From NCBI GenBank assembly GCA_016201505.1, contig JACQCQ010000006.1, positions 1 to 62,290 on the forward strand: 62,290 bases of DNA, in the 5' to 3' direction. Shown here piece after piece: positions 829-62,290 of this stretch; position 1 is the stretch's first letter, and each line of letters starts with the position of its first letter. The notes beneath the pieces were generated by a model. The model did not search any database. It worked only from the letters and a program-made list of their open reading frames with translations, and was not told where the DNA came from. The stretch is from Candidatus Sungiibacteriota bacterium. Its GTDB lineage: Bacteria; Patescibacteriota; Minisyncoccia; Sungbacterales; JACQCQ01. Made by a program: the position numbers and the translations under genes.

Positions 829-2853
829 ATGCCAAACAAATTCAAACTTGTAGCGCCGTATAAACCGACTGGCGATCAGCCTCAAGCCATTGAGGCGCTG
901 GTGCATTCGCTTGAATCCGGCGTAAGAGACCAGACGCTACTCGGCGTTACCGGCTCCGGCAAAACATTTACGATTGCGAACGTCATCGAACGCGTCCAAA
1001 AGCCAACACTCGTCATTTCACATAACAAGACACTCGCCGCCCAGCTCTATCAGGAGTTTAAAGAATTTTTTCCCGAAAATGCCGTTCATTATTTCGTTTC
1101 CTATTACGATTACTACCAGCCCGAGGCCTATATCCCGCGGTCCGATACCTATATCGAAAAAGACTCAAAGATCAACGACACGATTGACGCTCTGCGGCAC
1201 GCCTCCACCGCGGATTTGCTTTCGCGAAACGACGTCATCATCGTAGCCTCGGTTTCCTGCATCTACGGCATCGGCGACCCGGAGGAATACGAAAAAATGG
1301 CGCTTGATATTAAACTGGCGCAAAAACTTTCTTCCCGCGACCTCGCCCGGAAACTGGTTTTACTTCAATACGTCCGCAATCCGATTGATCCGCGCCAGGG
1401 CAACTTCCGACTGCGTGAAGACGCGGTTGAAATTCATCTGCCATCCGGCGCGGAAGTCGTTCTGGTTGAGTTCCGAAGAGCCAAAATTATCTCGATTAAA
1501 AAAAGAAAATCAGAGTTTAATTCTAATTTTTCAAACTTCAGCACGCTCCGTATCTTCCCGGCCAAACACTTTGTTACTCCAAGACACAAATTATTGCTGG
1601 CCATCGAGCGCATCAAAGATGAACTAAGAGAACAGATGGAGAAATTTAAAAAAGAAGGCAAGGTTTTGGAACTCGAGCGCATCAAACAGCGCACAACTTT
1701 CGATATCGAAATGTTAAAACAAACCGGCATCGTCTCGGGCATTGAGAACTATTCGCGCCACCTTTCATTTCGAGACGCAGGCGATCCGCCATATACCCTG
1801 CTTGATTACTTCGCCCGCGCGAGCCAACAAGGCGCACCCGCTGCACCAAAAAAATCCCTCCACTACGATACTCTAGAGTATCCTAGTGGCGTTGATTTCC
1901 TGACCGTCATTGATGAGTCACACGTTTCTCTGCCGCAAATTCGTGGCATGTATAACGGTGACCGCGCGCGAAAAACGACGCTGGTGGACTATGGCTTCAG
2001 GCTCCCCTCCGCGCTCGATAACCGACCGCTGAAATTTGATGAATTCAGACAAAAAACCGGCCAGACAATTTATGTCTCGGCGACGCCCGCCGCCTATGAG
2101 CAATCTGTTTCCGCGGGCCATCTTGCCGAGCAGGTCATCCGGCCGACTGGGCTTCTTGATCCGGAGCTTGAGGTCCGCCCCACAGAACATCAAATTCGCG
2201 ATTTGGTAAAAGAACTAGAAAAGAGAAAAGCCAAAAACGAACGTTCATTGGTCATCGCTCTCACCAAACGGCTCGCCGAAGATATCGCCCAATATTTAGC
2301 TGACGCGGGATTAAAGACAACCTATCTGCACTCGGAGGTAAAAACGCTCGAGCGGCCGGATATTTTAGCCGATCTGCGAAGAGGCGAATACGACGTTCTG
2401 GTTGGCATCAATTTACTCCGTGAGGGGCTTGATCTGCCCGAAGTCTCGTTTGTGGCCATTTTAGATGCCGACAAAGAAGGCTTTTTGCGCAATGATACGA
2501 CACTTTTACAGATTATCGGCCGCACCGCGCGCCATCCCGATGGGCGAGTAGTTTTGTATGCCGATAGAGTTACGGATTCGATGAAACGAGCCATCGGCGA
2601 AACCAACCGTCGGCGCAAAATTCAGGCGGCTTACAACCAGGAACACGGCATCACGCCCACCGGAATTGAAAAAGCCATTCGCGCCTCGCTGTCTGAAGAA
2701 GCGGCGAGAAGGGAAGAGGCGGAAATCAAACTCGAAGGTCAGGCCAAAAAAATGCGCGAGGCTCTAACCCGCGAAATGAAAAAAGCCGCCAAAGACATGA
2801 ACTTCGAATTGGCGGCGCGCATCCGGGATCGGATTAAGAAACTAGGGGGTTAG
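829..2853 (+). CDS. uvrB: excinuclease ABC subunit B
   Basis: 674 aa. N-terminus FKLVAPYKPTGDQPQAIEAL, Walker A GVTGSGKTFT, helicase motifs DESHVSLPQIRGMY and GINLLREGLDLPEVS, and a C-terminal UVR motif (FELAARIRDRIKKL). Confidence 0.97.
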   Translation: MPNKFKLVAPYKPTGDQPQAIEALVHSLESGVRDQTLLGVTGSGKTFTIANVIERVQKPTLVISHNKTLAAQLYQEFKEFFPENAVHYFVSYYDYYQPEAYIPRSDTYIEKDSKINDTIDALRHASTADLLSRNDVIIVASVSCIYGIGDPEEYEKMALDIKLAQKLSSRDLARKLVLLQYVRNPIDPRQGNFRLREDAVEIHLPSGAEVVLVEFRRAKIISIKKRKSEFNSNFSNFSTLRIFPAKHFVTPRHKLLLAIERIKDELREQMEKFKKEGKVLELERIKQRTTFDIEMLKQTGIVSGIENYSRHLSFRDAGDPPYTLLDYFARASQQGAPAAPKKSLHYDTLEYPSGVDFLTVIDESHVSLPQIRGMYNGDRARKTTLVDYGFRLPSALDNRPLKFDEFRQKTGQTIYVSATPAAYEQSVSAGHLAEQVIRPTGLLDPELEVRPTEHQIRDLVKELEKRKAKNERSLVIALTKRLAEDIAQYLADAGLKTTYLHSEVKTLERPDILADLRRGEYDVLVGINLLREGLDLPEVSFVAILDADKEGFLRNDTTLLQIIGRTARHPDGRVVLYADRVTDSMKRAIGETNRRRKIQAAYNQEHGITPTGIEKAIRASLSEEAARREEAEIKLEGQAKKMREALTREMKKAAKDMNFELAARIRDRIKKLGG

Positions 2854-2952
2854 TACTTTTATTACGCCACATTCTATCAGCAGCGGGGATGATGTCGCGG
2901 GTTCACAGTTGTAAGCGATAAGCGCTCAAACAAATTTTTGTTTCTTTCGCAA

Positions 2953-5079
2953 TTATATCTTTTGCCGACGCAGGAGCAGGGCATTGACAGCGACAATAAT
3001 CGTGCTGGCCGACATAAATACAGCGGCGAGGGCGGGCTCGAGCAAGATACCTTTGAAAGCCAGTACGCCGGCCGCGAGAGGTAATGCAAAAATATTGTAG
3101 CCAGTCGCCCAGAAAAGGTTCTGAATCATTTTGGAATAGGTCATCCGGGAAAGTTTAATTATTTTAGCGATATCCCGAGGGTCATTCCTGACAAGAATAA
3201 TTCCGGCCGACTCTATGGCCACATTCGTCCCTGCGCCAATGGCAATGCCGAGATCGGCTTGGGTGAGTGCCGGGGCATCATTGATTCCATCGCCAACCAT
3301 GGCGACTTTTTTATTTCTCATCTGAAGTTCTTTCACCCGATCGGATTTTTGATGCGGCAGCACCCGGGCGAAGTATTCTTGAATGCCCAGTTCTTGGCTC
3401 ACCCACTTGGCCACATCTTCAGAATCGCCCGTGATCATAGCGGTTTTAACGCCAATGGTTTTTAAGACTTGAATGGCCTCCAGCGACTCTGCTCGAATAA
3501 TGTCAGCCAGAGCAATCGCCCCCCAGACCGCTTGAGCCTTAAGAACAAAAATAATGGTCTGTCCTTTTTCGCCGGCAGCTTGAACCGGCCTAGAAAGTTC
3601 ATCGGGAATATGCATCCCTATGTTGTCGAGAAGCACCGGCCCGCCCACCATCACCTCTTTTTCATCAACCAATGCTCTAACGCCTTTTCCTTTCAGTGCT
3701 TCGAATTTCTTTAGTTCTTTGAGTGAAAGCCCGCGTTCTTGGGCTTTTAGAACCACCGCCCGTGCAATCGGATGTTCCGATACAGCGTCAAGAGCAGCGG
3801 CCAATCCCAGGACTTCATCTTTAGTGTGGCCGCTTACAGGCCATATCTCTACGACGCCGAACTCACCCTTGGTCAGCGTTCCGGTCTTATCAAACAGCAC
3901 GATGTCGATTGATCGCGCGGCCTCAAGGGCCAGTCTCTGTTTTACGAGGAAACCGTTTTGTGCGGCTTTCGTCGTAGAAATCGAAGCTACCAGAGGGACT
4001 GCCAGCCCTAATGCGTGCGGACAAGCAATAACTAAAACGGCCACGAGCCGCGCCACCGCAAACCCCAGCGCAGCGCCGGAAAAAAGCCAAGCCATAAATG
4101 TGATGAAGCCCCCGACCACGGCGACAATGGTCAAATAGAGAGCCGCTCTGTCCGAGAGCACCTGCAGCCGTGATTTAGAAACTTGTGCTTCGGCGACTAA
4201 ACGCATGACCCCGGCCAGAAAAGTTTTTTCGCCGATAGTTGTTACACGGATCTTGAGGGCTCCGTCGCCGTTAACAGTTCCGGCAATAACAGAATCATTT
4301 TCTTTTTTAGATACCAGTCTTGATTCTCCGGTAACCATGGATTCATTAACATCAGATTCTCCGGCAATGACATTACCGTCGGCGGGAATTTTGGCTCCCG
4401 GCCGTGCGAGCACGGTATCACCTGCCCGCAGATCGGCGAGAGGAATAATTTCTGTTTTACCGTTTTTGATAACTTCGGCGGTATCGGGCAGCAGTTTCGA
4501 GAGTTCTTTCAGCGCACCCTGCGCCCCACTGACCGCGCGCATTTCCAGCCAGTGGCCGAGCAGCATGATGGTAATCAGCGTGGTAAGCTCCCAAAATAAG
4601 CCTTCGGTGCGCGCCCAGACGGCATAGACGCTCCAAAGATAAGCCGCCGAGATGGCAATGCCGACGAGCGTCATCATGCCCGGCAGGCGTGCCTGAATTT
4701 CTCTCCGGGCTCCGGCCAGAAAAACCCAACCGCCGTAGAAAAATACGATTGATCCAAACACCAAAGGCAGATACGCTGATCCCGAAAAATCGGGCGGAGA
4801 CCATTTGAAAATTTTCTCGACAATACCCGCGTACAGCACTACGGGAATGGTGAGGACAAGACACACCCAGAATTTTTTTAAAAACACTGCGGTACTGTGG
4901 CCGGTATGCTTATCGCGGGCAGCGTGATCCGTGGCGTCTTTTTTCTTTTTTATGGGGATGAGATTCATGCCGCATTCAGGACACATGCCCGGCGTATCCC
5001 GTTTTATTTCAGGGTGCATGGGACAGGTATATATCGCCTGCGGCGCTGATGGCTGACTGATATGGTCTTTATGATTCAT
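2953..5079 (-). CDS. heavy-metal (copper) translocating P1B-type ATPase, CPH-motif (CopB-like) subtype
   Basis: 708 aa. Phosphorylation motif DKTGTLT, hinge GDGINDAP, transmembrane CPH in ACPHALGLAVP, and N-terminal Cys-pair metal-binding domain YTCPMHPEIKRDTPGMCPECGM. Lies downstream of a CsoR gene. Confidence 0.93.
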   Translation of the reverse strand: MNHKDHISQPSAPQAIYTCPMHPEIKRDTPGMCPECGMNLIPIKKKKDATDHAARDKHTGHSTAVFLKKFWVCLVLTIPVVLYAGIVEKIFKWSPPDFSGSAYLPLVFGSIVFFYGGWVFLAGARREIQARLPGMMTLVGIAISAAYLWSVYAVWARTEGLFWELTTLITIMLLGHWLEMRAVSGAQGALKELSKLLPDTAEVIKNGKTEIIPLADLRAGDTVLARPGAKIPADGNVIAGESDVNESMVTGESRLVSKKENDSVIAGTVNGDGALKIRVTTIGEKTFLAGVMRLVAEAQVSKSRLQVLSDRAALYLTIVAVVGGFITFMAWLFSGAALGFAVARLVAVLVIACPHALGLAVPLVASISTTKAAQNGFLVKQRLALEAARSIDIVLFDKTGTLTKGEFGVVEIWPVSGHTKDEVLGLAAALDAVSEHPIARAVVLKAQERGLSLKELKKFEALKGKGVRALVDEKEVMVGGPVLLDNIGMHIPDELSRPVQAAGEKGQTIIFVLKAQAVWGAIALADIIRAESLEAIQVLKTIGVKTAMITGDSEDVAKWVSQELGIQEYFARVLPHQKSDRVKELQMRNKKVAMVGDGINDAPALTQADLGIAIGAGTNVAIESAGIILVRNDPRDIAKIIKLSRMTYSKMIQNLFWATGYNIFALPLAAGVLAFKGILLEPALAAVFMSASTIIVAVNALLLRRQKI

Positions 5080-5463: not shown

Positions 5464-5718
5464 ATGATTAACACAATACAGGCATTAAAGGTCGCCGCCT
5501 CATGGGCGAGCATCGTTTATATCATCTGCTTTGGAGGCGTTGCACTCCTGCCGGGAATCAGGCCCTGGTTTATGGAGTACGCGCTCCACACGCAAATTGA
5601 CACCGGTACCAACGTGATGACACTAGCAACATTCATCACCGGTCTCATCGTTTGGAATATAATCGCGGTACTTGCCGTGTGGCTTTATATAGGGCTCAAT
5701 AATTACTTTAAGAAATAA
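5464..5718 (+). CDS. small membrane protein (84 aa, 2-3 hydrophobic segments), divergent from csoR
   Basis: In-frame ATG at 5464 within ORF 5161..5718; the upstream part of that ORF is antisense to csoR. Sequence MINTIQALKVAASWASIVYIICFGGVALLPG...ITGLIVWNIIAVLAVWLYIGL. Confidence 0.55.
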   Translation: MINTIQALKVAASWASIVYIICFGGVALLPGIRPWFMEYALHTQIDTGTNVMTLATFITGLIVWNIIAVLAVWLYIGLNNYFKK

Positions 5719-24982: not shown

Positions 24983-26074
24983 TTAAGAAATCCGAATCGG
25001 CATTAATATGGTAAAAAACTGAGGATCTTGGTCATCACGAATCAGGGCTGGTCTGGTTTCATCAATCAGCGAGACGGAAATCTCACTTGACCGCAGGCCC
25101 TCTAGGGCATCGGAGAGATAGCGGTAATTAAATCCGATGCGTCCGCTTTTGCCTGAGACTTTAGCATTAATCTCTTTTGTGTGCTTACCGACGTCGGGAT
25201 TTAAAATTTCAAGCATCAGGTGATTGGGTCGGTATGATAGGACGACATCGTTTAGTTTTGATGAAAATACGCTCGAGAGCTTAACGGATGAGAGCATCTC
25301 ATCCCGCGGAATAAACAGCGAGGTCGAAAAATCTTTTGGGATTAAATTCTCATAATCAGGATACCGGTCTTGGATGAGCCGTGTCACAATTTTAACATTC
25401 TCTGATTCAATCGCTACCTGTCCTTCGTGAAACAGAAATGTTGTCTCTTGGTCTGGATCGGCAATTTTTACAAATTCTTGTAGGGGGCGTAGGGGGATAA
25501 TGGCAGAAGTTTCTTCGGTGGCGGCGAATTCACTGATTTTGGCTTCAGCTAAGCGAAACGTATCCGTGCCGGTAAGGGTCAGTTGTTTTTTCCCCGCGCG
25601 AAAAAAAAGGCCGCTGATACCGGGTTTAAAGTCAGAGGCGGAAATTGACGGTAGAATACGTAGTAATTGAGGAATTAATATTGAATTCTTAATCGTTACT
25701 TTAGTTTTACCTTTAATCTGGGGCATGATGGGAAAATCTTTTGAGATAATACCTCTTATCTCTGATTGAGAACTGTCTGTTTCTAGGGTAATAACACCCT
25801 CTTTTTCTTCGAGTGTGATTTTTTCATCAGGTAGGGTTTGTAGGAGAGAAGATAAAACACGTGGAGGAATAGCAATTGACCCCTCGCGCGCAATTTTAGC
25901 CGGGATTTGCACCTCGACCCCCATTTCTAAATTGGTGGCTTGGATCTTTAGCTTTTGTGAATCTGTTTTTATTAAAATATTACCAATTATTGGTAACGAG
26001 AGCTGTTTCCCTAAAAAACGTTCAGCAACGAGGAGTGCGTCGCGGAGTGTAGTTCGTAAGACTGTAACAACCAT
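24983..26074 (-). CDS. dnaN: DNA polymerase III beta sliding clamp
   Basis: 363 aa, directly downstream of dnaA. Three-domain length and typical N-terminus (L..AL..V......LPIL.NILI). Confidence 0.93.
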   Translation of the reverse strand: MVVTVLRTTLRDALLVAERFLGKQLSLPIIGNILIKTDSQKLKIQATNLEMGVEVQIPAKIAREGSIAIPPRVLSSLLQTLPDEKITLEEKEGVITLETDSSQSEIRGIISKDFPIMPQIKGKTKVTIKNSILIPQLLRILPSISASDFKPGISGLFFRAGKKQLTLTGTDTFRLAEAKISEFAATEETSAIIPLRPLQEFVKIADPDQETTFLFHEGQVAIESENVKIVTRLIQDRYPDYENLIPKDFSTSLFIPRDEMLSSVKLSSVFSSKLNDVVLSYRPNHLMLEILNPDVGKHTKEINAKVSGKSGRIGFNYRYLSDALEGLRSSEISVSLIDETRPALIRDDQDPQFFTILMPIRIS

Positions 26075-26274
26075 ATCTTATATCTATGTTAAATATTTTA
26101 CTTATTGTTGTTATTAGTACTCTTAATATGTGGATGATGAACTAAAAATTGTTTATCTATATATGTTTTTTATATATTAGCCGCCGTCATTACTTGTGGG
26201 TAAAATTTTATAACATGTGTGTAAGGTAGAGTGTGAATAGTTATTTTATTTTAGACCCCACATTCATCCACACC
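26075..26274. other. probable oriC (dnaA-dnaN intergenic, AT-rich with DnaA-box-like 9-mers)
   Basis: Compared with TGTGGATAA/TTATCCACA: TGTGGATGA 26129-26137, TGTGGGTAA 26205-26213 and TCATCCACA 26264-26272 (1 mismatch each), and TGTGAATAG 26232-26240 (2 mismatches). An AT-rich run spans about 26140-26185. An additional GTATCCACA lies at 27675-27683 at the dnaA 5' end. Flanking synteny is rpmH-rnpA-yidD-yidC-jag and dnaA-dnaN. Confidence 0.6.
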
Positions 26275-27684
26275 TTATACTTCATATATCTTCTCTTTAA
26301 TCATTTGTAGTTCATTTTCAATCATTGGATTATTTTTTAATTCGTTGGTGATTTTTTTACAAGCATGGATCACCGTCGTATGGTCTTTTTTACCCAACTT
26401 TTCTCCAATAAACGGAAAAGAACTTTTCATTTCTTCACGAAGGAGATACATAGCAATTTGGCGCGGTTTTACCACCTCCTTTTTTCGACTGTGATTTGTT
26501 AATGCCTTTTCTTCCACATCATAAAATTCAGCGACCGCTTTTAAGACTTTTTTGACTGAAGTAAATCTCCGAGGCTCTTGTGAGATATACGTGAGAATCC
26601 TTTTTGTTTCCTCTATTGTGATCGGGCTATTGGTTAATTTGGCGCTTATCACAATACGGTTTAAGGCGCCCTCAAGCTCGCGAACATTCGTTTTAATAGA
26701 GTCGGCAATGTACCACAGGGCCTCTTCGGGGATAACGATCCCTTTTTGGTCAGCCTTTGCCTTCAAAATCGTCATCCGCGTCTCGCGGTCGGGTTGGCCA
26801 ATATCCGCAATCATCCCACCCTCGAAGCGAGACCTAAGCCGTTCTTCCAGCGTCGGAATTGATTTGGGCGGGCGATCAGATGAAATTAATATCTGCTTGT
26901 TCCTTTCGTATAAAGCATTAAATATATGGAAAAACTCTTCCTGCATTTTCTCAGTGCGGGCAATAAATTGGATGTCGTCCATAATGAGCATGTCTACCGA
27001 GCGGTATTTTTCTTTCAGTCGCGACATCTCCTGATTTTTTAAAGCCTCTACAATCTCGCCCATGAAACGCTCTGCCGGAACGTATCTCACCTTTCGTGTC
27101 GGATTTTGTTTCATCATCTCGTTCCCGATCGCCTGGATCAGATGCGTTTTACCAAGACCCACGCCGCCATAAATAAAAAGCGGATTATAAGTTGTTCCTG
27201 GATTTTTAACGATCGATTGTCCTGCCGCGTGCGCTAACTCATTGAATGAACCAACGATGAAGGTCTCAAAGACGTAGCGCGGATTCAAATTTGTGTCAGG
27301 ATCGACCGAAAGATCCCGCAGCGAGAATTCCTCGTCGGGGATCACGACCCCCGGCTCGGGGGCATACCGTTTTTCGGCGGAGGGCCGGCGCCGGGATTCT
27401 TCCGGCGGCTGGTATTTCCCAATCACGTACTCAACATCCTTAATGTCATTATTTAAATTACGGATCGCGCGTAAAATTGATTTATGGTATTTAGATTTTA
27501 GCCATTCGCGGGCGAATCCATTGGGTACAGAGAGCGTGATAATGCCGTCTCGCAGGTCGGCAATCGCTGTTTGCTTGAACCACGTAATAAAGTTGGCTTT
27601 GGTTGTTGCCAATTCTATTTCTTGAAGCGCGTTGCGCCACAATTCTTCGTGGGTCATATGCGAGTTCGTTTTAAGTATCCACAT
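26275..27684 (-). CDS. dnaA: chromosomal replication initiator DnaA (possible true start at MTHEELW, 27657)
   Basis: Walker A GGVGLGKTHL, DDIQF, box VII/VIII, and C-terminal DNA-binding domain (PRQIAMYLLRE...DHTTVIHA). Confidence 0.97.
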   Translation of the reverse strand: MWILKTNSHMTHEELWRNALQEIELATTKANFITWFKQTAIADLRDGIITLSVPNGFAREWLKSKYHKSILRAIRNLNNDIKDVEYVIGKYQPPEESRRRPSAEKRYAPEPGVVIPDEEFSLRDLSVDPDTNLNPRYVFETFIVGSFNELAHAAGQSIVKNPGTTYNPLFIYGGVGLGKTHLIQAIGNEMMKQNPTRKVRYVPAERFMGEIVEALKNQEMSRLKEKYRSVDMLIMDDIQFIARTEKMQEEFFHIFNALYERNKQILISSDRPPKSIPTLEERLRSRFEGGMIADIGQPDRETRMTILKAKADQKGIVIPEEALWYIADSIKTNVRELEGALNRIVISAKLTNSPITIEETKRILTYISQEPRRFTSVKKVLKAVAEFYDVEEKALTNHSRKKEVVKPRQIAMYLLREEMKSSFPFIGEKLGKKDHTTVIHACKKITNELKNNPMIENELQMIKEKIYEV

Positions 27685-34429: not shown

Positions 34430-36238
34430 TTAACTTGCAGCCAGTTCGGCTTTCGCCTGCTTGATTAATAGTAACTGCTTGGGGTCGGAGGTGATGACCT
34501 GGTCTTCCGTGTAGGAGGCGATAATTTTAATGGCGACGTGCTTAAGTCCCGCAAAGAAAATCCCCTCCCCGACGTCGGACTCAAGCAACAGAAATTTTTC
34601 CTCTTCCGTCAGGTTAAAGGTCTGGGCGACGGCCTCAATCGTGGCGGGAGATTGCTTGAGTAACAGCTGGATCGAGGAGTTCGTCACGATCGGCTTCCCG
34701 TAGGGAGAGCCCATGAAGTCCGCCACATCCTGCGTGATGGTCGAAAGACCCAGATAATATTTGCGGCCGCGTTTGGCAATGCCGTATAGAAACGAGGCGC
34801 CGTCCTCATGCCGCATCAAGACCCAGGCCTCATCCACCACCAGGAGCCGCTTTTTCAACTCGGCCCTGACCAGGTTCCATATATAATGAAGCACGATATA
34901 CATCGCGACCGGCCGCAGTTCTTCTTCCATGTCGCGGACCGAGAAGACCACCATCTTGGAGTTAATATCAATGTTTGTCGGCTGGTTTAAGAATCCGGCC
35001 CAGGTGCCCTCGGTGTATTTTTTGAGCCGGGTGGCCAGCCCCGCGCCGCCCTCGGTATTGGCGAGCACCAAGGCCAGATCAGACAGCGTGGGAAAATTGG
35101 CTTTTGAGAAATCGGAGTTGGGCGTAATGTCGCGCGAGGCGTAAGTTTCGGTAATAGCGCGGTCAAGCACCGAATCTTCATCGGGCGTTAGGCCGCCCAA
35201 CATAATGCGAAAGAGTCCGACCAAGTTGATGATGTTCGATCTTAAAATATCCGAGGGCGACTCATCTTCGCGCGGCGGCGGCAGGTCAAAGGGATTAATG
35301 TGATGGGGCGAATTTAGTGAAATGTTAAAATATCGTCCGCCGACCGTTTCAGCAAGATACTCATACTCGCGTTCAGGATCAATCACCACCACATCCGTTC
35401 CGATCATGAGCGAACGCAGGATCTCAAGCTTTGAAGCGTAGGATTTGCCGCTGCCGGACTGGGCAAACATAACCGAGTTGCCGTTTGGCATTGAGAAGCG
35501 GTCGAAAATGATCAGCGAGTTGTTGTGGCGGTTAACGCCATACATGATGCCGCGCGACGAGGTCAGGTCGAATGAGACAAAGGGGAAGGTCGAAGAGATT
35601 GGTGCCGAATTCATGTAGCTATGAATGAGGAGCTCGTCATTGTTTAAGGGCAAGGTTGATTGGAAGCCTTCTTCCTGCTGGAAGAGTGCCGGCTTCAGGT
35701 AGACGAGTTTGGCTTCCAGCGCAGACTTAATTTGCGTTTCCAATTTATTTAACTCGGTTTCCGAGTCGCCGTAGATTGTAATGTAGAGGGCGAAGTTAAA
35801 TAATTTTTCGGTGGCTTGCTGGAGCTTGTCTCTTAATTCTTCCAGATCGCGGTAGGCGGTATCGAGCACCGGATCGCGCACCAAACCCTTTTCTTCTCTG
35901 GTGGCGAGCTGGGATTGGACTTGGGCCACTTTCTTGCGTAGCTGGTTTAAGACGTTCGATGTATCCACGGGGTGGACAAACATGGAAATGTCGAAGACCT
36001 TATCGAGATTGATGATCGGCGTAAACCAGTTGGTGTGCAGATACCGCGGGTAGGAAAAGGCAAAAAGAGTTCGGACCAGTTTTTCACCAAGTTGCAACGA
36101 AGATGGATTGACTTGCAAAGCCGAGGGCGAGATGATATCGCGCAATGATAATTCGGCCGTGCGGTAAATATCCTCGGGGAAAACGGCCAGTATTTCATCA
36201 GCCTCATTCTTTTTAGATTTTAGAAAATCAAACGCCAT
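34430..36238 (-). CDS. VirB4/TrsE-type type IV secretion ATPase, C-terminal about 600 residues (lacks the usual N-terminal domain)
   Basis: Walker A FAQSGSGKSYASK and Walker B RLLVVDEAWVLM. The segment ISPSALQVNPSSLQLGEKLVRTLFAFSYPRYL...DISMFVHPVD matches the mid-region of Gram-positive VirB4 proteins such as Tn916 Orf16 (from memory). Confidence 0.9.
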   Translation of the reverse strand: MAFDFLKSKKNEADEILAVFPEDIYRTAELSLRDIISPSALQVNPSSLQLGEKLVRTLFAFSYPRYLHTNWFTPIINLDKVFDISMFVHPVDTSNVLNQLRKKVAQVQSQLATREEKGLVRDPVLDTAYRDLEELRDKLQQATEKLFNFALYITIYGDSETELNKLETQIKSALEAKLVYLKPALFQQEEGFQSTLPLNNDELLIHSYMNSAPISSTFPFVSFDLTSSRGIMYGVNRHNNSLIIFDRFSMPNGNSVMFAQSGSGKSYASKLEILRSLMIGTDVVVIDPEREYEYLAETVGGRYFNISLNSPHHINPFDLPPPREDESPSDILRSNIINLVGLFRIMLGGLTPDEDSVLDRAITETYASRDITPNSDFSKANFPTLSDLALVLANTEGGAGLATRLKKYTEGTWAGFLNQPTNIDINSKMVVFSVRDMEEELRPVAMYIVLHYIWNLVRAELKKRLLVVDEAWVLMRHEDGASFLYGIAKRGRKYYLGLSTITQDVADFMGSPYGKPIVTNSSIQLLLKQSPATIEAVAQTFNLTEEEKFLLLESDVGEGIFFAGLKHVAIKIIASYTEDQVITSDPKQLLLIKQAKAELAAS

Positions 36239-36247
36239 CCCAGTCTA

Positions 36248-36562
36248 TCAACTTTCAGAGACGCCAAGCGCCGTTTTTCGGCGTGTGTACTCTTTTAGTC
36301 TTAATCCTAAAAATCTGCGACCTTGTGTGCCTTTGAGGTAATGCTCTCGGCGCTTGGCGTCGTCTTGATTTAAACAGGCTGCGTAATAAACAAGCTCGAA
36401 TGGCAATCGAAACTTGGTCGCAACAGAATAACCTCGTTTGTGTTCTTCTACTCGTTTTCGAAGATTAGGCGTATAACCAATATATCTTTTTTTATCTTTC
36501 ATACTTTCTAGTGCATATGTATAGGAGAACACACTGGAAGTTGTATTACTGGGCATAATCAT
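36248..36562 (-). CDS. stand-alone GIY-YIG nuclease-domain protein lying between the two VirB4 pieces
   Basis: 104 aa. FSYTYALESMKDKKRYIGYTPNLRKRVEEHKRG carries the GIY...YIG...R...E motifs. Its start overlaps the upstream stop (ATGA), and its stop is 9 nt from the VirB4 ATPase ATG. Confidence 0.85.
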   Translation of the reverse strand: MIMPSNTTSSVFSYTYALESMKDKKRYIGYTPNLRKRVEEHKRGYSVATKFRLPFELVYYAACLNQDDAKRREHYLKGTQGRRFLGLRLKEYTRRKTALGVSES

Positions 36563-37236
36563 ATGGTTTCCTCACTGGTTGGTTTCTCTTTTTCCAACTC
36601 CTGCATATTGTACAAACTGTAGAAAAGCTCAATTAGTTCATCCGTTTTTAAAACGGCGCTGCGTACTCCGATGCGCTGGAGGCCGAGTTGCACAGAGTCG
36701 ACTCTCTGCAGAAGCTGGATTTTATTTTGCGCGAACTCGTCGTCGCTTTTCGTTTTGGCGGATTGGTTTTTGGAAAACAGAGAAGAAAGAAAATGCGCCG
36801 CTCCGGCCGGATTTAGGTTTATCGGCTCAAAGGGAACGACAATATAGAAAGATTTCGCCACGATATTCGACAGTTCAACGAACCCGCGCACGAACTCGAT
36901 GTATTCTGCGGTCTGGAGTTTTAATAAGTCATTGTCTTGCGCTTTTTCAAATTCGCGGAGGGATGAAAGGTAGGGCTCGATGTTCAATTTGCGGGATTGA
37001 ATCACGAACTGAAGCGAAAAATCAACCGAATTCAAAAAGTTCTGGTACTGGAAAATAATCGCATCCTGTTCCTCGGGAGATTTCAGCGCAAAGTTAAAAG
37101 CCGAGGCCATCAGGACCATACACAGGCGGCCGTTTTTCATCACAATCAGACCATCGCGGATTGAATCAATCACCAAAAAGTCCTGCGAGGCGCGGGCTGA
37201 TTTTGATTTTTTCGATTCTTGAGGGGCGGTAACCAC
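36559..37236 (-). CDS. VirB4 N-terminal domain encoded as a separate 225-aa protein
   Basis: DFLVIDSIRDGLIVMKNGRLCMVLMASAFNFALKSPEEQDAIIFQYQNFLNSVDFSLQFVIQSR matches the N-terminal module of Gram-positive VirB4/TrsE proteins (D-I-x-Y...E-D/E...F...FLN...Q). 225 + 602 aa is about the length of a full VirB4. Confidence 0.65.
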   Translation of the reverse strand: MVTAPQESKKSKSARASQDFLVIDSIRDGLIVMKNGRLCMVLMASAFNFALKSPEEQDAIIFQYQNFLNSVDFSLQFVIQSRKLNIEPYLSSLREFEKAQDNDLLKLQTAEYIEFVRGFVELSNIVAKSFYIVVPFEPINLNPAGAAHFLSSLFSKNQSAKTKSDDEFAQNKIQLLQRVDSVQLGLQRIGVRSAVLKTDELIELFYSLYNMQELEKEKPTSEETI

Positions 37237-37256
37237 GAATGTTTACAAGAATTGTA

Positions 37257-37658
37257 TTATTCCAGGTTCTCTTTTATATCCAGGCTCCAAGCCAAATCCT
37301 GCAACTTGGATTCGGTTAACTTGGGGATTTTAGAGAGCGGAGTTTTAGGCGTTGCGGTCGGCCCTTCTTTTTTCGCCGGCTGCTGCTTCCAGAGGTATAG
37401 ATGCGGGTGGGTGTAGAAGCCGATGGCGTTCATGACCACTTTCGGAAATGGCACGTTGTTTAATTTAAAAAAGGCCAGAGCCAATGAAAACAAGCCGATG
37501 GGAACAGCCAGCACGATAAAAATATAAAAATTGAAAAGATAGTAAAAAATAACTAAGAGACCGGCTCCCACGGCTAGGTACATAAATTGTTTCAGCGTCA
37601 GCGGGCCGATAATTTTATCCTCGATGTCGATAAATTGCGGGACTTGGTATTGTCTCAT
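37257..37658 (-). CDS. PrgI-family (VirB3-like) type IV secretion membrane protein
   Basis: MRQYQVPQFIDIEDKIIGPLTLKQFMYLAVGAGLLVIFYYL is the characteristic PrgI-family N-terminus, followed by two TM helices. Confidence 0.85.
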   Translation of the reverse strand: MRQYQVPQFIDIEDKIIGPLTLKQFMYLAVGAGLLVIFYYLFNFYIFIVLAVPIGLFSLALAFFKLNNVPFPKVVMNAIGFYTHPHLYLWKQQPAKKEGPTATPKTPLSKIPKLTESKLQDLAWSLDIKENLE

Positions 37659-37662
37659 GATT

Positions 37663-38119
37663 AGGAAATAGGCATTGGGTAATGGGGAATGGATAGGTAT
37701 GTCATAGACGATTGAGACTTGTTATTAAAGCATTCAGCATTTTCATTATGGAAGTTCTGCTCTGCGAGAACCTGTCAAAATTGGATGTATTCAATAGGCC
37801 AACGTTTTTGCTTACCAGCAATTGAGTTTCTAATTCTGCAGCTGAACCTCGAGCAATCCTTAAAAATTGATTGTACTCCTTAATATTTTTACGTGACCAT
37901 CCTTCAGCAATATTAGAAGCAATTGAAATCGCCGCCCGTCTAATTTGGCTCGTCAACCCATACACTTCAGATTTTGGATATAATTCTGTCATACGATATG
38001 TTTCAGTGGTCAGCTCAATTGACTTTTGCCACACCAGTAATTCTCGATACGAATTCATGTTCCATTCGCTGTTCCCCGTTTACCGTCCCTCATTTCCCAT
38101 TCGCTATCCCCCATTTCCT
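37663..38119. mobile_element. four-helix-bundle gene cassette bounded by imperfect inverted GGGAAT/AGGAAAT-word arms (IVS-like insertion)
   Basis: The left arm AGGAAATAGGCATTGGGTAATGGGGAATGGATAGG (37663-37697) pairs with the right arm whose reverse complement is AGGAAATGGGGGATAGCGAATGGGAAATGAGGG... (ending at 38119). The outer 7 nt are perfectly complementary. The first 12 nt are identical to the hairpin at 48681. Confidence 0.6.
37702..38058 (-). CDS. four-helix-bundle protein (23S rRNA intervening-sequence protein / Avd-like family)
   Basis: YRELLVWQKSIELTTETYRMTELYPKSEVYGLTSQIRRAAISIASNIAEGWSR...RIARGSAAELETQLLVS is the canonical TIGR02436-type sequence. Confidence 0.9.
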   Translation of the reverse strand: MNSYRELLVWQKSIELTTETYRMTELYPKSEVYGLTSQIRRAAISIASNIAEGWSRKNIKEYNQFLRIARGSAAELETQLLVSKNVGLLNTSNFDRFSQSRTSIMKMLNALITSLNRL

Positions 38120-59532: not shown

Positions 59533-59597
59533 CTCCGCCAGCCGGCTCCGCCAGCCGGCTCCGCCAGCCGGCTCCGCCAGCCGGCTCCGCCAGCCGG
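59533..59597. repeat. five perfect tandem copies of the 13-mer CTCCGCCAGCCGG
   Basis: Copies start at 59533, 59546, 59559, 59572 and 59585. The array begins 64 nt downstream of tRNA-Pro. Confidence 0.95.
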
Positions 59598-59693
59598 CGG
59601 ACTAGTGCCCCGACTGAAACTAGGATCGAGATTCTCGATTGGCTCTTCGACAAGGATCAATCACGGGATCTTAATCTTAGAAAGGAAAAATAC

Positions 59694-60422
59694 ATGCGTT
59701 TTTACGAGAACGTTTCGGCGTATCTTTCCACCGTCGATGACGGGCCTATGGGCAGTTCAACCAACCGGGTCGGCCAATATGCCGAGAATCGAGAACGATT
59801 TTTGGCAAAGAACGGCATTGCGCCCGGCCAGCTCGTTTTGGGCGGTCTCGTGTCAAAAGACAGAATTGGTCTCGTGACGAAAGTCCCGCCGACCCAGCGC
59901 GTTCCGGACACCGATGCGCTGGTCACCAAAATCCCTGGCATCGCGCTTGGCATGGTGCATTCCGATTGCTTCCCGGTGTATCTGCGTTGGCCGTCGGGTA
60001 TCGCACTCGTACACGCCGGTTGGCGCGGCATTTCTCTCGGCATCGTATCGAAGACCCTAAAGCGCTTAAAAGCTCTGGGTGTGGATCCCTCGCTGCTCGC
60101 CATCCAGATCGGTGTTGGCATCCAACAATGCCATTTCGTCATGCAGGATGACGAAAATGGCGTGAGTCATTTCCTGAACGATCGCGATCCCTCGCTTGAC
60201 TACCGGCGGCACATTAAAAGGGTGGGCGAGCTGTTCTATGTTGATCTGCGTGCCGTTGCCCTGGTCCAAATCCACGCAACCTATAAAGCCTTCGGCCTTA
60301 CGGTTCTCCCTGGCCAGATGAGAGCCTCGAAAGAATGTTCCTTTTGCGGGGAAGGAAGTTTCTACTCACAACGGAGACAGCCAACTCCAGGCCACAACAA
60401 TCTCTCGGTCATGGTGTGCTGA
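59694..60422 (+). CDS. pgeF: YfiH/PgeF-family (DUF152, laccase-domain) protein
   Basis: TDALVTKIPGIALGMVHSDCFPVYL...ALVHAGWRG matches the D-A-x-x-T...ADC-x-P...HAGWRG signature. Confidence 0.85.
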   Translation: MRFYENVSAYLSTVDDGPMGSSTNRVGQYAENRERFLAKNGIAPGQLVLGGLVSKDRIGLVTKVPPTQRVPDTDALVTKIPGIALGMVHSDCFPVYLRWPSGIALVHAGWRGISLGIVSKTLKRLKALGVDPSLLAIQIGVGIQQCHFVMQDDENGVSHFLNDRDPSLDYRRHIKRVGELFYVDLRAVALVQIHATYKAFGLTVLPGQMRASKECSFCGEGSFYSQRRQPTPGHNNLSVMVC

Positions 60423-60434
60423 AACGACCGAGAT

Positions 60435-60479
60435 CCCCGCGCCGGTCCGCCGGCTGGCGGATCGGCGCGGGGCCTTTTT
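60435..60479 (+). terminator. intrinsic terminator after pgeF
   Basis: CCCCGCGCCG (60435-60444) pairs with CGGCGCGGGG (60463-60472), with an inner stem TCCGCC/GGCGGA, followed by CCTTTTT. Confidence 0.85.
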
Positions 60480-60552: not shown

Positions 60553-60626
60553 GGGGATATAGTAAAGTGGCATTACACCTCATTCGCATTGAGGAGGCTC
60601 GGGTTCGATTCCCGATATCTCCACCA
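60553..60626 (+). tRNA. tRNA-Ala (anticodon CGC) with encoded CCA
   Basis: Manual cloverleaf: acceptor GGGGATA/TATCTCC including the G3:U70 alanine identity pair, D stem GTAA/TTAC, anticodon stem CCTCA/TGAGG with loop TTCGCAT, T arm TCGGG-TTCGATT-CCCGA, then ACCA. Confidence 0.88.
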
Positions 60627-62141
60627 ATCGCAACTTTCGCCGTTTTGGGAAAGCATTGCCTCGCGGCTTCGCCGCTCGGCAGGGGCGCGTCCCGCAAGAC
60701 GGGACGCGGCAAAATCCCACGGCTCACCAAACGAAACGGAAACGGATTTGTCCAAAAGTAAGGGGTTCGTTCCGATCTTTTGGACAAATGCCTTGATTTC
60801 AGGAAAACTGTCGCTCGCCGACAGTTTTTCGGCTTTATTAGCGTCTAAAATCCACGCCCGCAAGGGTTGGAGCCAATTCTTTCCCGTTTGTCCAAAATCC
60901 TCCAAATCGTTCGCAAGAGAAACTTTTTGATTCAGAAGTTGCTCCTTTTTCACCAAGTAGTTTTCTTTGGGAATATCGCCGTCAATGTAGGCGGAAACGA
61001 GCTTGTCCAGTTTCTCTTGCGTTTCAGAAAGTTTATTTTTCAGATTCTGGACAAACTTTTGCGACGAGTGATTTTGCTCTCTTTCCCATTCGTCAACTTG
61101 CTTTAACATTTTATCCGTCCACTCATCGCAAATGGCAACGCTTTTGAGCCGTGCCTTCAGTTGCGCGGCAAGGTCTTTTTCTTGAATATACTTTTGCGAA
61201 CACGCGCCTTTCTTTTTGGTACAGCGATAGTAGCGATATATGCCGCCGCACTTGCCGCGCGAAAATTGCGCCGTGATTGCCGAGCCACATTCGCCACAAG
61301 TGAGTAAGCCGGTAAATGGGAAATCGTGGCGTTGTTTGCTTTTTCTTGGTTTCGCTTTACGGCGCAATACTTCCTGCACGGCTTCAAAAAGCGTTGAGGA
61401 AAGAATTGGCTCAAAGCGTCCTTCGTGATATTCGCCCTTGTGCTTCACTAAACCTAAATATGCTTGATTAGTAAGCATTCTTGAAATGGACGCTTTGGCA
61501 AGTGGCGTTCGGTTTTTTGTTTCCAAACCAAGTTCAGCCAAAAACTCCGCCAAACTTCCGAGAGTATGTTTTCCGGTGGCGAATTCCTCAAAAGCGCGAA
61601 CGATAACTTTTGAAAGTGTCGGGTGAGGTTCAATAGTTCTCGTTTTTGTATTATTCACATAACCAAACGGCGCTTTTGTTAGCCATTCGCCACGGCGGAG
61701 TTTTTGGCGGATACCGCGATTGATATTTTCAACCAAGTTATCAGAATAGTATTTTGATTGACCAAACGCCACTTGCAACATGAATAACCCTTGCGGCGTG
61801 GGCTCAAACCAAAATGTCGGAAAGCGCAAAGAAACTATTTTTTGCGTATCCACGAGATAAATGACTTTGCCGCCGTCCACAGAATTACGCGCCAATCTGT
61901 CGGGGTGCCATGCGAGTATTCCAACGCCTTCCATTTTCTCAATTTCGGCAATCATGGCGGCAAACATTTGCCTCCCTGGTTTCTTTGCGCTTTTCGCCTC
62001 GGTAAATTCTGCAAGAATTTCCACATTTTCTCTACGCGCATATTCCCGCAATTCAAAGAGTTGAGCTTCATTACTCATAATTTGGTGGTCGTCATCTTCA
62101 GTTGATTTTCTAGCGTAGAGAAAATATTTTGGTTTGAGCAT
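60573..62141 (-). CDS. large serine recombinase (start taken at MLKPKYFLYARKST; the last roughly 60 codons run through the left repeat and antisense to tRNA-Ala)
   Basis: Resolvase catalytic domain (YARKSTEDDDHQ...HPDRLARN), recombinase domain, zinc ribbon (CGECGSAITAQF...YRYYRC), and a coiled-coil region. Confidence 0.88.
   Translation of the reverse strand: MLKPKYFLYARKSTEDDDHQIMSNEAQLFELREYARRENVEILAEFTEAKSAKKPGRQMFAAMIAEIEKMEGVGILAWHPDRLARNSVDGGKVIYLVDTQKIVSLRFPTFWFEPTPQGLFMLQVAFGQSKYYSDNLVENINRGIRQKLRRGEWLTKAPFGYVNNTKTRTIEPHPTLSKVIVRAFEEFATGKHTLGSLAEFLAELGLETKNRTPLAKASISRMLTNQAYLGLVKHKGEYHEGRFEPILSSTLFEAVQEVLRRKAKPRKSKQRHDFPFTGLLTCGECGSAITAQFSRGKCGGIYRYYRCTKKKGACSQKYIQEKDLAAQLKARLKSVAICDEWTDKMLKQVDEWEREQNHSSQKFVQNLKNKLSETQEKLDKLVSAYIDGDIPKENYLVKKEQLLNQKVSLANDLEDFGQTGKNWLQPLRAWILDANKAEKLSASDSFPEIKAFVQKIGTNPLLLDKSVSVSFGEPWDFAASRLAGRAPAERRSREAMLSQNGESCDWWRYRESNPSLLNANEV
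60637..60760. repeat. left inverted repeat flanking the serine recombinase gene
   Basis: 60637-60681 is 45/45 identical to the reverse complement of 62246-62290. It is followed by a hairpin with a different sequence but equivalent structure, and a second conserved block (AAAATCCCACGG, 60711-60722 versus 62205-62216 reverse complement). Confidence 0.9.
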
Positions 62142-62164
62142 AATTTTATAAATTATTATTTTAG

Positions 62165-62290
62165 ATACGAAAACGACAAATTCATTTCCTTTTCTTTTTG
62201 TTCGCCGTGGGATTTTAGGGCTTTGCGCCTTGCGCAAAGCCCGAATGCCGAGCGGCGAAGCCGCGAGGCAATGCTTTCCCAAAACGGCGA
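62165..62290. repeat. right inverted repeat flanking the serine recombinase gene (runs off the window)
   Basis: It is the reverse complement of the left repeat. Perfect identity extends exactly to the window edge, so the true extent is unknown. Confidence 0.9.

Follow-up and report, generated by a model that had tools for sequence, protein, structure and literature searches.

The distal end of contig JACQCQ010000006.1 (assembly GCA_016201505.1, Candidatus Sungiibacteriota bacterium), whose 62,290 nucleotides form the window analyzed here, encodes a large serine recombinase (LSR) that adjoins a tRNA-Ala gene and is enclosed by inverted repeats, in the following called arms. With a probability of roughly 0.6, we interpret this feature as the part of an integrated mobile element that carries the recombinase and lies next to the tRNA; the element would insert at tRNA 3' ends and contain an inverted spare attachment site. 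The complete element probably measures 3.5–5.5 kb and is neither a 1.65-kb transposon nor a Hin-like switch, two possibilities raised in the original prediction from the sequence of the window. The junctions found in related loci follow the pattern that would be expected of attL, an internal attP-like site and attR. Both the logic of these junctions and their generality rest on tool results for a set of homologous loci, which was obtained by scanning one genome per species and comprises at least 581 loci; the best 80 of them were examined (labels L###).

Junction types in related loci

In relatives of the window element, a conserved sequence termed box P lies directly upstream of the upstream arm. 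It is conserved in 54 distinct sequences and consists of tTCrAA, 18 nt with the nearly invariant GGTTCG.GCAAAG, TAgwAt, and a further 5–7 nt before the arm begins. Box P thereby resembles a sigma-70 promoter whose start site would fall on the first bases of the arm. At least 12 loci (L004, L007, L008, L012, L021, L036, L051, L072, L073, L076, L080, and L082), with partial cases in three more, contain P twice: the additional copy is inverted, includes 107–360 nt of the region upstream of P, is 98–100% identical to the first, and is located 1.1–2.8 kb further upstream. This distal copy stops 3–9 nt into the arm sequence and then diverges to host DNA. Three types of junction can consequently be distinguished, tRNA-core-arm, P-core-arm, and P-core-host, which have only a 3–9-nt core in common that corresponds to the tRNA end (e.g., CCAC, TCACAAA, or CCGCA). 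The tRNA-core-arm and P-core-host junctions are in direct orientation, and P-core-arm is inverted. Three of the four half-site combinations are represented by these junctions. As in tRNA-targeting islands, the 12 loci combine a direct repeat of the core at the distal boundary with variable cargo.

This arrangement would result if the LSR acted at the core and recombined an attP of the structure P-core-arm with an attB of the structure tRNA-core-host flank, yielding attL and attR. The integrated element would then extend over about 3.5–5.5 kb from tRNA-core-arm (attL) to P-core-host (attR), and the P-core-arm junction would represent an internal inverted copy of attP carried by a putative circular form. 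According to this model, the distal P would restart the transcription of host genes that insertion has severed from their tRNA operon, while the proximal P would drive the recombinase gene, whose predicted mRNA would have a leader exactly complementary to its own 3' end. Our best guess is that the spare attP copy has a double role, namely as an autoregulatory operator and as an additional site for recombination. With such a second site, and no excision factor, the element might integrate in both directions or recombine with a further tRNA gene.

The sequences facing the distal P support this reading of the junctions. In L004, tRNA-Ser(tga) lies 47 nt from the distal P; without the insertion, the site would thus be an operon of Val, Ala, and Ser tRNAs, whose downstream tRNA would be expressed again from the outward P. 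The distal copies in L007 and L008 face terminator-like hairpins, as would be the case if this sequence had once been the 3' flank of a tRNA. A generic scan of L004 additionally found a terminator-like hairpin just upstream of P in both copies. The GGTTCG motif of box P was also considered as a pseudo-tRNA. This was rejected, as T-arm pairing is absent and the motif lies 6 nt farther from the core than in real tRNAs; it may possibly be a binding-site mimic. As a separate observation, a long hairpin (CCAAAAATTTCCTT...AAGGAAATTTTTGG) is conserved upstream of box P in L051 (3600–3839), L021 (3600–3843), and L001 (2201–2310), and further GC-rich hairpins occur in this region, none of which matches an Rfam family.

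The cargo between the two P copies is unrelated from locus to locus and includes a transporter, HAD hydrolases, a methyltransferase fusion, a surface protein, and an ammonia-lyase, among others. In 12 of 12 loci its genes are oriented opposite to the LSR gene, and it differs between close relatives; these points likewise favor the interpretation as an integrated element. No protein family is common to more than 4 of the approximately 35 upstream regions. A larger conserved element upstream, such as a phage or an integrative and conjugative element, was therefore rejected, given this lack of a widely shared protein family and of relatives in IMG/VR. There is also no conserved second gene in or beside the module, and hence no conserved candidate for a recombination directionality factor. 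Pairs of elements with approximately 95% identity show that both sides can be exchanged independently. L069 and L072 occupy the same tRNA gene and their homology stops 33 nt before the arm; L069 and L071, as well as L046 and L051, have at least 170 nt of upstream sequence in common at different tRNA genes. In L021, the C-terminal part of another recombinase-like open reading frame (ORF; 12–524) runs into the core of the distal junction, as if elements were stacked.

The recombinase module in the window

The tRNA-Ala(cgc) gene at positions 60553–60626 (plus strand), predicted by ARAGORN, is intact, has the G3:U70 pair and an encoded CCA, and scores 66.7 bits as an Rfam tRNA. It would provide the host half of an attL-like junction. 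Its last bases, CCACCA (60621–60626, plus strand), are the presumed crossover region and correspond to the core common to all junction types; for the window itself, this assignment is derived from the relatives L006, L089, and L093. The downstream arm (60627–60752, plus strand), as the element half of attL, is located entirely within the recombinase ORF, which is read on the minus strand. The upstream arm (62175–62290, minus strand) would be the element half of the internal attP-like junction and presumably forms the 5' leader of the recombinase mRNA.

A repeat finder detected the arms as 60637–60752 and 62175–62290, with a length of 116 nt, 82% complementarity, and a spacing of 1422 nt. Pairwise alignment confirmed that 60637–60681 equals the reverse complement of 62246–62290 at 45 of 45 positions, up to the final base of the window. 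No further copy of this outer 45-mer exists in the window (0 matches expected in shuffled sequences), and a search of the whole window revealed no other copy of the arm, the recombinase, or box P. Outside the window, arms are present at about 70 of the 80 homologous loci.

Each arm contains two hairpins. H2 is common to both arms (60658–60680 downstream, GCCTCGCGGC-ttc-GCCGCTCGGC, predicted by folding and accompanied by compensatory changes in the subfamily; 62247–62269 upstream, predicted by folding). H3 has a different sequence on each side, CGCGTCCCG-caaga-CGGGACGCG (60686–60708) in the downstream arm, which is of the L004/L104 type, and GGGCTTTGCGC-ctt-GCGCAAAGCCC (62218–62242) in the upstream arm, which is of the L006/L089/L093 type. 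An inner conserved block (AAAATCCCACGGC...GGATTTGTC) present in both arms is the antisense of the codons for a conserved C-terminal peptide, ..SVSFGEPWDF. The original prediction thus described the local anatomy correctly: the identical outer 45 nt, the paired hairpins of differing sequence and equal shape, which folding recovers in both arms, the inner block, and the reading frame that continues through the left repeat and antisense into the tRNA.

Its placement of the left repeat 11 nt after the CCA end holds for the repeat as it appears in the window, but this apparent start is due to the window stopping there. In L006, L089, and L093, which possess the same outer arm sequence, both arms continue via AAGTTGCGATTGG into the terminal CCACCA of the tRNA. 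By this comparison, the true arm of the window has approximately 132 nt and would begin inside the tRNA at 60621, and about 16 nt more of repeat (AAGTTGCGATTGGTGG) should follow position 62290. Beyond that, the core and then box P, or alternatively another tRNA, would be expected by analogy with L004, L007, L089, and others.

The arms of most other elements are nearly identical, unlike the 82% found here. The window element is a mosaic, with 93–96% identity to the L089/L006 lineage from 62290 to about 61000 and 95–98% identity to the L004/L005 lineage from about 60997 to 60650, which explains both the two alternative H3 hairpins and the low identity of the arms. The upstream arm folds with z-scores of −5.6 and −4.8, the downstream arm with a z-score of about −2. 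Within the window subfamily, 90.5% of the alignment cells of H2 and H3 are paired, vs. 73% in shuffles and 33–49% when the partner is slid by 1–3 columns, and 8 of the 12 pairs show double changes. This covariation suggests that what is constrained is a folded single strand (of RNA or of DNA) and not a sequence bound by protein. The window arms also show a long-range stem that closes off the hairpins, which was discarded because the subfamily consensus does not recover it, and no Rfam family matches the arms or the region upstream.

Recombinase gene and protein

The LSR gene (60573–62141, minus strand) starts with ATG at 62141 and encodes 522 amino acids; the ORF remains open through the left arm and terminates at a stop codon inside the tRNA gene (60573–60575). 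The protein has the domain composition of large serine recombinases, with an N-terminal catalytic domain (PF00239 Resolvase, E 1.6e-21, residues 7–153) and the C-terminal domains PF07508 Recombinase (E 4e-14) and PF13408 Zn_ribbon_recom (E 8.5e-12) identified by Pfam. The nucleophile serine is located in YARKSTEDD, and in an alignment of 31 sequences the motifs YARKST and DRLARN are (nearly) invariant, and C282, C285, C307, and C314 are fully invariant. The relatives among PDB structures are SPbeta SprA/YokA and the A118 integrase, both distant (E about 1e-10); the protein aligns to SprA residues 18–455 and to the C-terminal domain of the A118 integrase. A look-up of the exact protein sequence returned no record.

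The continuation of the ORF into the target is a family trait. The downstream arm is free of stop codons in the frame of the gene in 63 of 63 loci, vs. only 37 and 16 loci for the other two frames, and in 58 of 61 loci the stop codon follows 9–355 nt past the arm. Because the ORF stays open through the arm into the tRNA, the protein C-termini across the family read WW (from CCACCA) or ESNP/DSNP (from the antisense T-arm).

Extent of the family and its tRNA targets

Sequence searches recovered more than 5600 homologous protein clusters (5661), the best 120 of which share 60–91% identity with the window recombinase. Every named match among these 120 derives from Parcubacteria or another lineage of the Candidate Phyla Radiation (CPR), and the best 80 loci stem from Patescibacteria-type metagenome-assembled genomes, save a few with doubtful labels. 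No relatives were found on viral contigs in IMG/VR. Since the searchable literature on serine recombinases or integrases, CPR/Patescibacteria, tRNA, tmRNA, and inverted repeats yielded no description of this large family, it is apparently undescribed, and it is apparently confined to CPR/Patescibacteria.

Arms of 107–159 nt flank the gene at about 70 of the 80 loci. Among 63 complete arm pairs of at least 100 nt (107–159 nt, median 134), 13 are 100% identical, 39 reach at least 95%, and 58 at least 90% identity; the arms contain 2–3 GC-rich hairpins besides the C-terminal codons. As in tRNA-targeting islands, in which the integrase gene adjoins an intact tRNA 3' end, a tRNA or tmRNA gene on the opposite strand abuts the 3' end of the recombinase gene with its own 3' end, not only in the window but in 67 of the 80 loci. 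Targeted are genes of tRNA Ala, Glu, Ser, Arg, Lys, Leu, Gly, Pro, and Val as well as tmRNA, and the arm's outer end covers the last 4–7 nt of the tRNA or tmRNA in the relatives.

Several loci show additional peculiarities. L001 encodes a more distant LSR of 502 amino acids (2402–4126) with its own 122-nt arms (99% identical) that abuts tRNA-Ser(tga), so that two elements of the superfamily are arranged in tandem along one tRNA operon. Degenerate targets occur as a pseudo-tRNA-Ser beside the arm in L080 (around 5518–5590) and a pseudo-tmRNA end in L057 (around 1830–1900), and in L002 the tRNA-type gene beside the arm is cut down to a 12-nt stub, GCAGGTCCACCA (1625–1645).

Mobility and orientation of the module

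Differential occupancy of targets provides family-level evidence for integration. Eight genomes of different species have the divergent gene pair tRNA-Ser(cga)/tRNA-Glu(ttc) in common, with the element at the Ser end in L041, L043, L051, and L065 and at the Glu end in L020, L055, L076, and L078. The unoccupied tRNA of the pair is followed by an ordinary flank that begins with the same core. The presence/absence pattern characteristic of tRNA-targeting islands is therefore seen at this pair, at the level of the family only. A search for empty sites among the compared loci, based on the sequences beyond the distal junction, returned only tRNA-to-tRNA matches and one rearranged, uninformative match between L072 and L079.

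The module also exists in a rare opposite orientation. Among the 80 species-level loci it is represented by a single one, L077, in which the tRNA adjoins the 5' side of the gene and P the 3' side; since the arms of L077 are only 90% alike, the orientation in the assembly is resolvable. A pattern search combining the tRNA T-arm, the arm, and the 5' codons of the recombinase retrieved 23 metagenome contigs, all with a tRNA or tmRNA at the expected position; among species representatives, the orientation bias is approximately 70:1. Two of the 23 contigs, L092 and L104, carry decayed copies without a second arm, for which reason the rare adjacency cannot be an arbitrary choice of the assembler. 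L092 (7773–8082) consists of the tRNA, the arm, and only the first 13 recombinase codons, and in L104 (10599–12146) the 3' part of the recombinase gene is replaced by an anti-sigma-like zinc-finger sequence. The rare orientation could have arisen by flipping in place or by integration via the other attP copy.

A third layout is found in L089 (9229–11398) and L106, the closest relatives of the upstream arm of the window. Here the module is located between tmRNA and tRNA-Val genes, both of which face it with their 3' ends, and there is no P on either side. This is the product that would be expected if the internal attP copy had recombined with a second tRNA-type gene.

Alternative explanations

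Several observations weigh against the interpretation as an integrated element with a spare attachment site. Firstly, neither box P nor a distal junction lies within the window, and among relatives the distal junction was identified in only 12–15 of the approximately 35 loci with more than 3 kb of upstream sequence, while in the others contig breaks only suggest it. Secondly, neither an empty site nor a circular form was found for any one lineage; for the window's own empty site there is no related genome, the neighboring PgeF/YfiH-like protein being without a homolog above 36% identity. Thirdly, a generic sigma-70 scan misses box P in L004 (8/12 matches), and the dyad symmetry around the presumed attP is weak (best 0.32 complementary vs. 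a background of about 0.24). Fourthly, in contigs with perfect arms the orientation of the module may be an arbitrary choice of the assembler. Finally, the canonical rules of LSRs, which recombine attP with attB only, leave both the retention of an inverted attP and the interconversion of orientations unexplained.

A more far-reaching proposal goes further still, although we consider it doubtful. The element might represent a new type of two-site serine-integrase element, in which a circle carries two inverted identical attP regions between the recombinase module and a swappable cargo. Integration would leave an intact attP beside an expressed recombinase, and no excision factor would be needed. 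Such an element could integrate in either orientation and capture a second tRNA, thereby causing inversions or rearrangements of the chromosome between tRNA genes, for which L089 and L106 are suggestive, and it could also exchange cargo modules. Its enzyme would recognize the universal T-arm/acceptor end of tRNAs (GGTTCGA...), mimicked by box P, which would explain the use of at least 10 kinds of tRNA-type genes by a single family. The C-terminus of the recombinase, in turn, would report which partner is joined at the core.

Alternatively, the recombinase might invert its own gene between the arms as a self-contained segment and thereby switch its own expression, with P driving the gene in one orientation and leaving it, in the other, to tRNA read-through opposed by P. 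We regard this as unlikely. The existence of both orientations, including the resolvable case L077 and the 23 contigs with the decayed L092 and L104, speaks for it and vindicates this part of the original prediction, which had considered a Hin/Gin-like logic. Moreover, some contigs stop exactly at the outer end of the arm although the k-mer length (141) exceeded the arm (L038), as would fit two different flanks in one population. The opposite orientation could, however, equally result from integration via the second attP or from RecA-mediated exchange between the arms. The strong bias between orientations, the size of the enzyme (522 amino acids), and the location of P outside the arms also fit a simple switch poorly, and no other gene is controlled by the inversion. 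Furthermore, the arms exceed every known invertase site 4–5-fold in length, their hairpins preserve shape but not sequence, unlike protein-binding sites, and recombination between two like sites is not known for LSRs. Integration, and not inversion alone, is shown by the distal junction together with the polymorphic occupancy.

Another explanation, quite unlikely if taken alone, places the function of the repeat at the level of RNA. A panhandle formed by the leader and the 3' end of the mRNA, or the local hairpins, would control translation or stability, and cleavage of the message would yield a non-stop mRNA, given that the ORF lacks its own stop codon. The strong structure of the arms, the pairing of H2 and H3 maintained through changes on both sides, and the frame kept open through the arm with its stop codon shortly beyond are in line with this idea, as is the presumed transcription start from P at the core, which would turn the whole arm into a leader. 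However, the shared core, the three junction types, and the distal copy of P would be left unexplained, the closing stem of the window arms is not clearly conserved, and no Rfam family matches. Regulation by RNA would thus complement rather than replace the interpretation as an integrated element.

It is very unlikely that arm, gene, and arm form a minimal transposon-like element of 1.65 kb that moves alone and uses the arms as terminal inverted repeats. This unit is indeed the only part conserved at all loci, many database contigs of 1.5–1.8 kb contain nothing else, and in L089 and L106 it lies between tmRNA and tRNA-Val without P at either side. Such short contigs are, however, also expected from assembly breaks at both arms, and L089 is also the product expected if a second tRNA-type gene recombined with the internal attP copy. 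More importantly, the cores at the two ends of the unit are inverted and mostly non-palindromic (CCAC, TCAC...), whereas the conservative 2-bp crossover of serine recombinases leaves direct repeats, and the tRNA junction has its direct-repeat partner in the distal P-core-host junction 3.5–5.5 kb away. Box P, 33 nt outside the upstream arm and conserved family-wide, must also be counted as part of the element. This proposal of the original prediction thus does not fit as stated, and the same applies to its suggestion of an inverted duplication of the tRNA flank, as only 3–9 nt of the tRNA end are shared and the duplicated sequences are the arm of the element and, separately, the promoter region.

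An assembly artefact, such as a fold-back or chimeric contig end or a collapsed duplication, is hardly credible, for although the identity extends to the last base of the contig and contig ends in or near the arm are very common in the family, the inner halves of the arms differ (82% identity) and each matches a different natural lineage, and the same arrangement is seen in the interior of long contigs produced by many unrelated assemblies and assemblers, among them the complete chromosomes CP060229.1 and OY970382.1. The interpretations as a pure switch, a minimal transposon, or an artefact each fail at least one test.

Comparison with known systems

The closest parallels are the serine integrases of A118, SPbeta (SprA), phiC31, and Bxb1. 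Like these, the window recombinase combines a catalytic domain with a YxRxS serine, a recombinase domain, and a zinc ribbon with a coiled-coil insertion; its gene lies beside the attachment site, and the junctions would fit an attP x attB logic with a short core and no target duplication. In contrast to them, the element is tiny and not a phage, uses the 3' ends of many tRNA and tmRNA genes as targets, and retains a whole inverted attP region inside. The ORF crosses the crossover site and obtains its stop codon from the target, and the similarity in sequence is distant. The assessment in the original prediction that long inverted repeats are unusual for an element of a serine integrase is borne out by this comparison.

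Small cargo-bearing elements at tRNA 3' ends, with variable cargo and tandem arrangement at tRNA clusters, are also known as tycheposons and tRNA islands. Most of these elements rely on tyrosine integrases, with direct repeats of a tRNA 3' segment as their boundaries. According to passages of the report on Prochlorococcus tycheposons, 27 of 937 carry a large serine recombinase (10.1101/2020.12.28.424599). These passages describe no inverted internal attP, no arms flanking the integrase gene, and no ORF extending into the tRNA. The host phylum differs as well.

With the invertases Hin, Gin, Cin, and Pin, the module has in common a serine recombinase gene that is bounded by inverted repeats and occurs in both orientations. 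The hin gene lies inside a segment bounded by inverted repeats that is found in both orientations in nature. These enzymes have about 190 amino acids and a C-terminal helix-turn-helix, act on 26-bp sites with the aid of an enhancer, and regulate a neighboring gene by the flip. The window protein, in contrast, is a large enzyme with recombinase and zinc-ribbon domains, the arms of 107–159 nt contain palindromes of varying sequence instead of short conserved sites, no regulated neighbor is evident, and the two orientations, at about 70:1, were seen across contigs. Transposons with terminal inverted repeats differ in other respects, since here box P lies outside the arm, the cores at the ends of the repeat-bounded unit are inverted, and the direct-repeat partner is 3.5–5.5 kb distant.

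Serine recombinases that move small or medium elements also include TnpX (Tn4451), TndX (Tn5397), and the transposases of IS607, which insert via a circular form into multiple targets. The IS607 enzymes are small and have an N-terminal DNA-binding domain. None of these elements is known to have long inverted repeats around the recombinase gene or to specialize on tRNA ends, and none of them was recovered as a close relative of the window recombinase. A likeness in layout only exists to the yeast 2-micron plasmid, as the putative circle would consist of recombinase and cargo segments between two inverted repeats of 170–500 nt, each copy of which would hold a recombination site. FLP, which acts on FRT, is a tyrosine recombinase that flips identical sites and thereby amplifies copy number, whereas the enzyme described here belongs to the serine integrases, which normally do not recombine identical sites, and its circular form is a prediction.

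Implications

We found no description of serine-integrase elements with an inverted spare attachment site, an outward promoter that repairs the interrupted operon, or an integrase ORF that ends in the target. The layout suggests ways in which an integrase element might move, or rearrange genomes, without a directionality factor. Genetic tools are almost lacking for the CPR/Patescibacteria, which account for much of bacterial diversity and possess tiny genomes. A compact, widespread, and apparently self-sufficient integrase family from these organisms would be a natural starting point for the development of such tools and of new integrases, all the more as the targeted tRNA 3' ends exist in every cell.

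Contig ends and further observations in the window

Of 79 loci, 12 lie on contigs that break off within or at the upstream arm, and the repeat lengths preceding the end are often k-mer-like (33, 71, 83, 90, 99, 99, or 131 nt). In 20 more of the 79 loci the contig ends within 300 nt upstream of the arm, inside the second repeat. That the window stops in the upstream arm is due to the inability of assemblers to pass through these repeats, and the remainder of the element (P, cargo, and attR) is presumably located on another contig. The concern voiced in the original prediction that the right repeat might belong to a larger or collapsed repeat region is thus justified in so far as the contig ends because of a repeat, but this repeat is biological and present in more than 70 independent assemblies. 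The arms hence constitute a systematic cause of contig breaks beside tRNA genes in CPR assemblies, affecting about 40% of the examined loci.

Beside the tRNA-Ala gene, positions 59694–60422 encode the PgeF/YfiH-like protein mentioned above. The lack of a close homolog among 5.8 billion proteins implies that the host lineage of the contig is otherwise unsampled. Further upstream, a 13-nt unit, CTCCGCCAGCCGG, is repeated five times in tandem (59533–59598) directly after tRNA-Pro(cgg), and its last copy is complementary to part of a terminator-like hairpin (60435–60472) downstream of the PgeF/YfiH-like ORF. Elsewhere, the G+C content drops to 0.39–0.44 at positions 25001–27000 and 36001–38000, vs. 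about 0.50 in the rest of the window.

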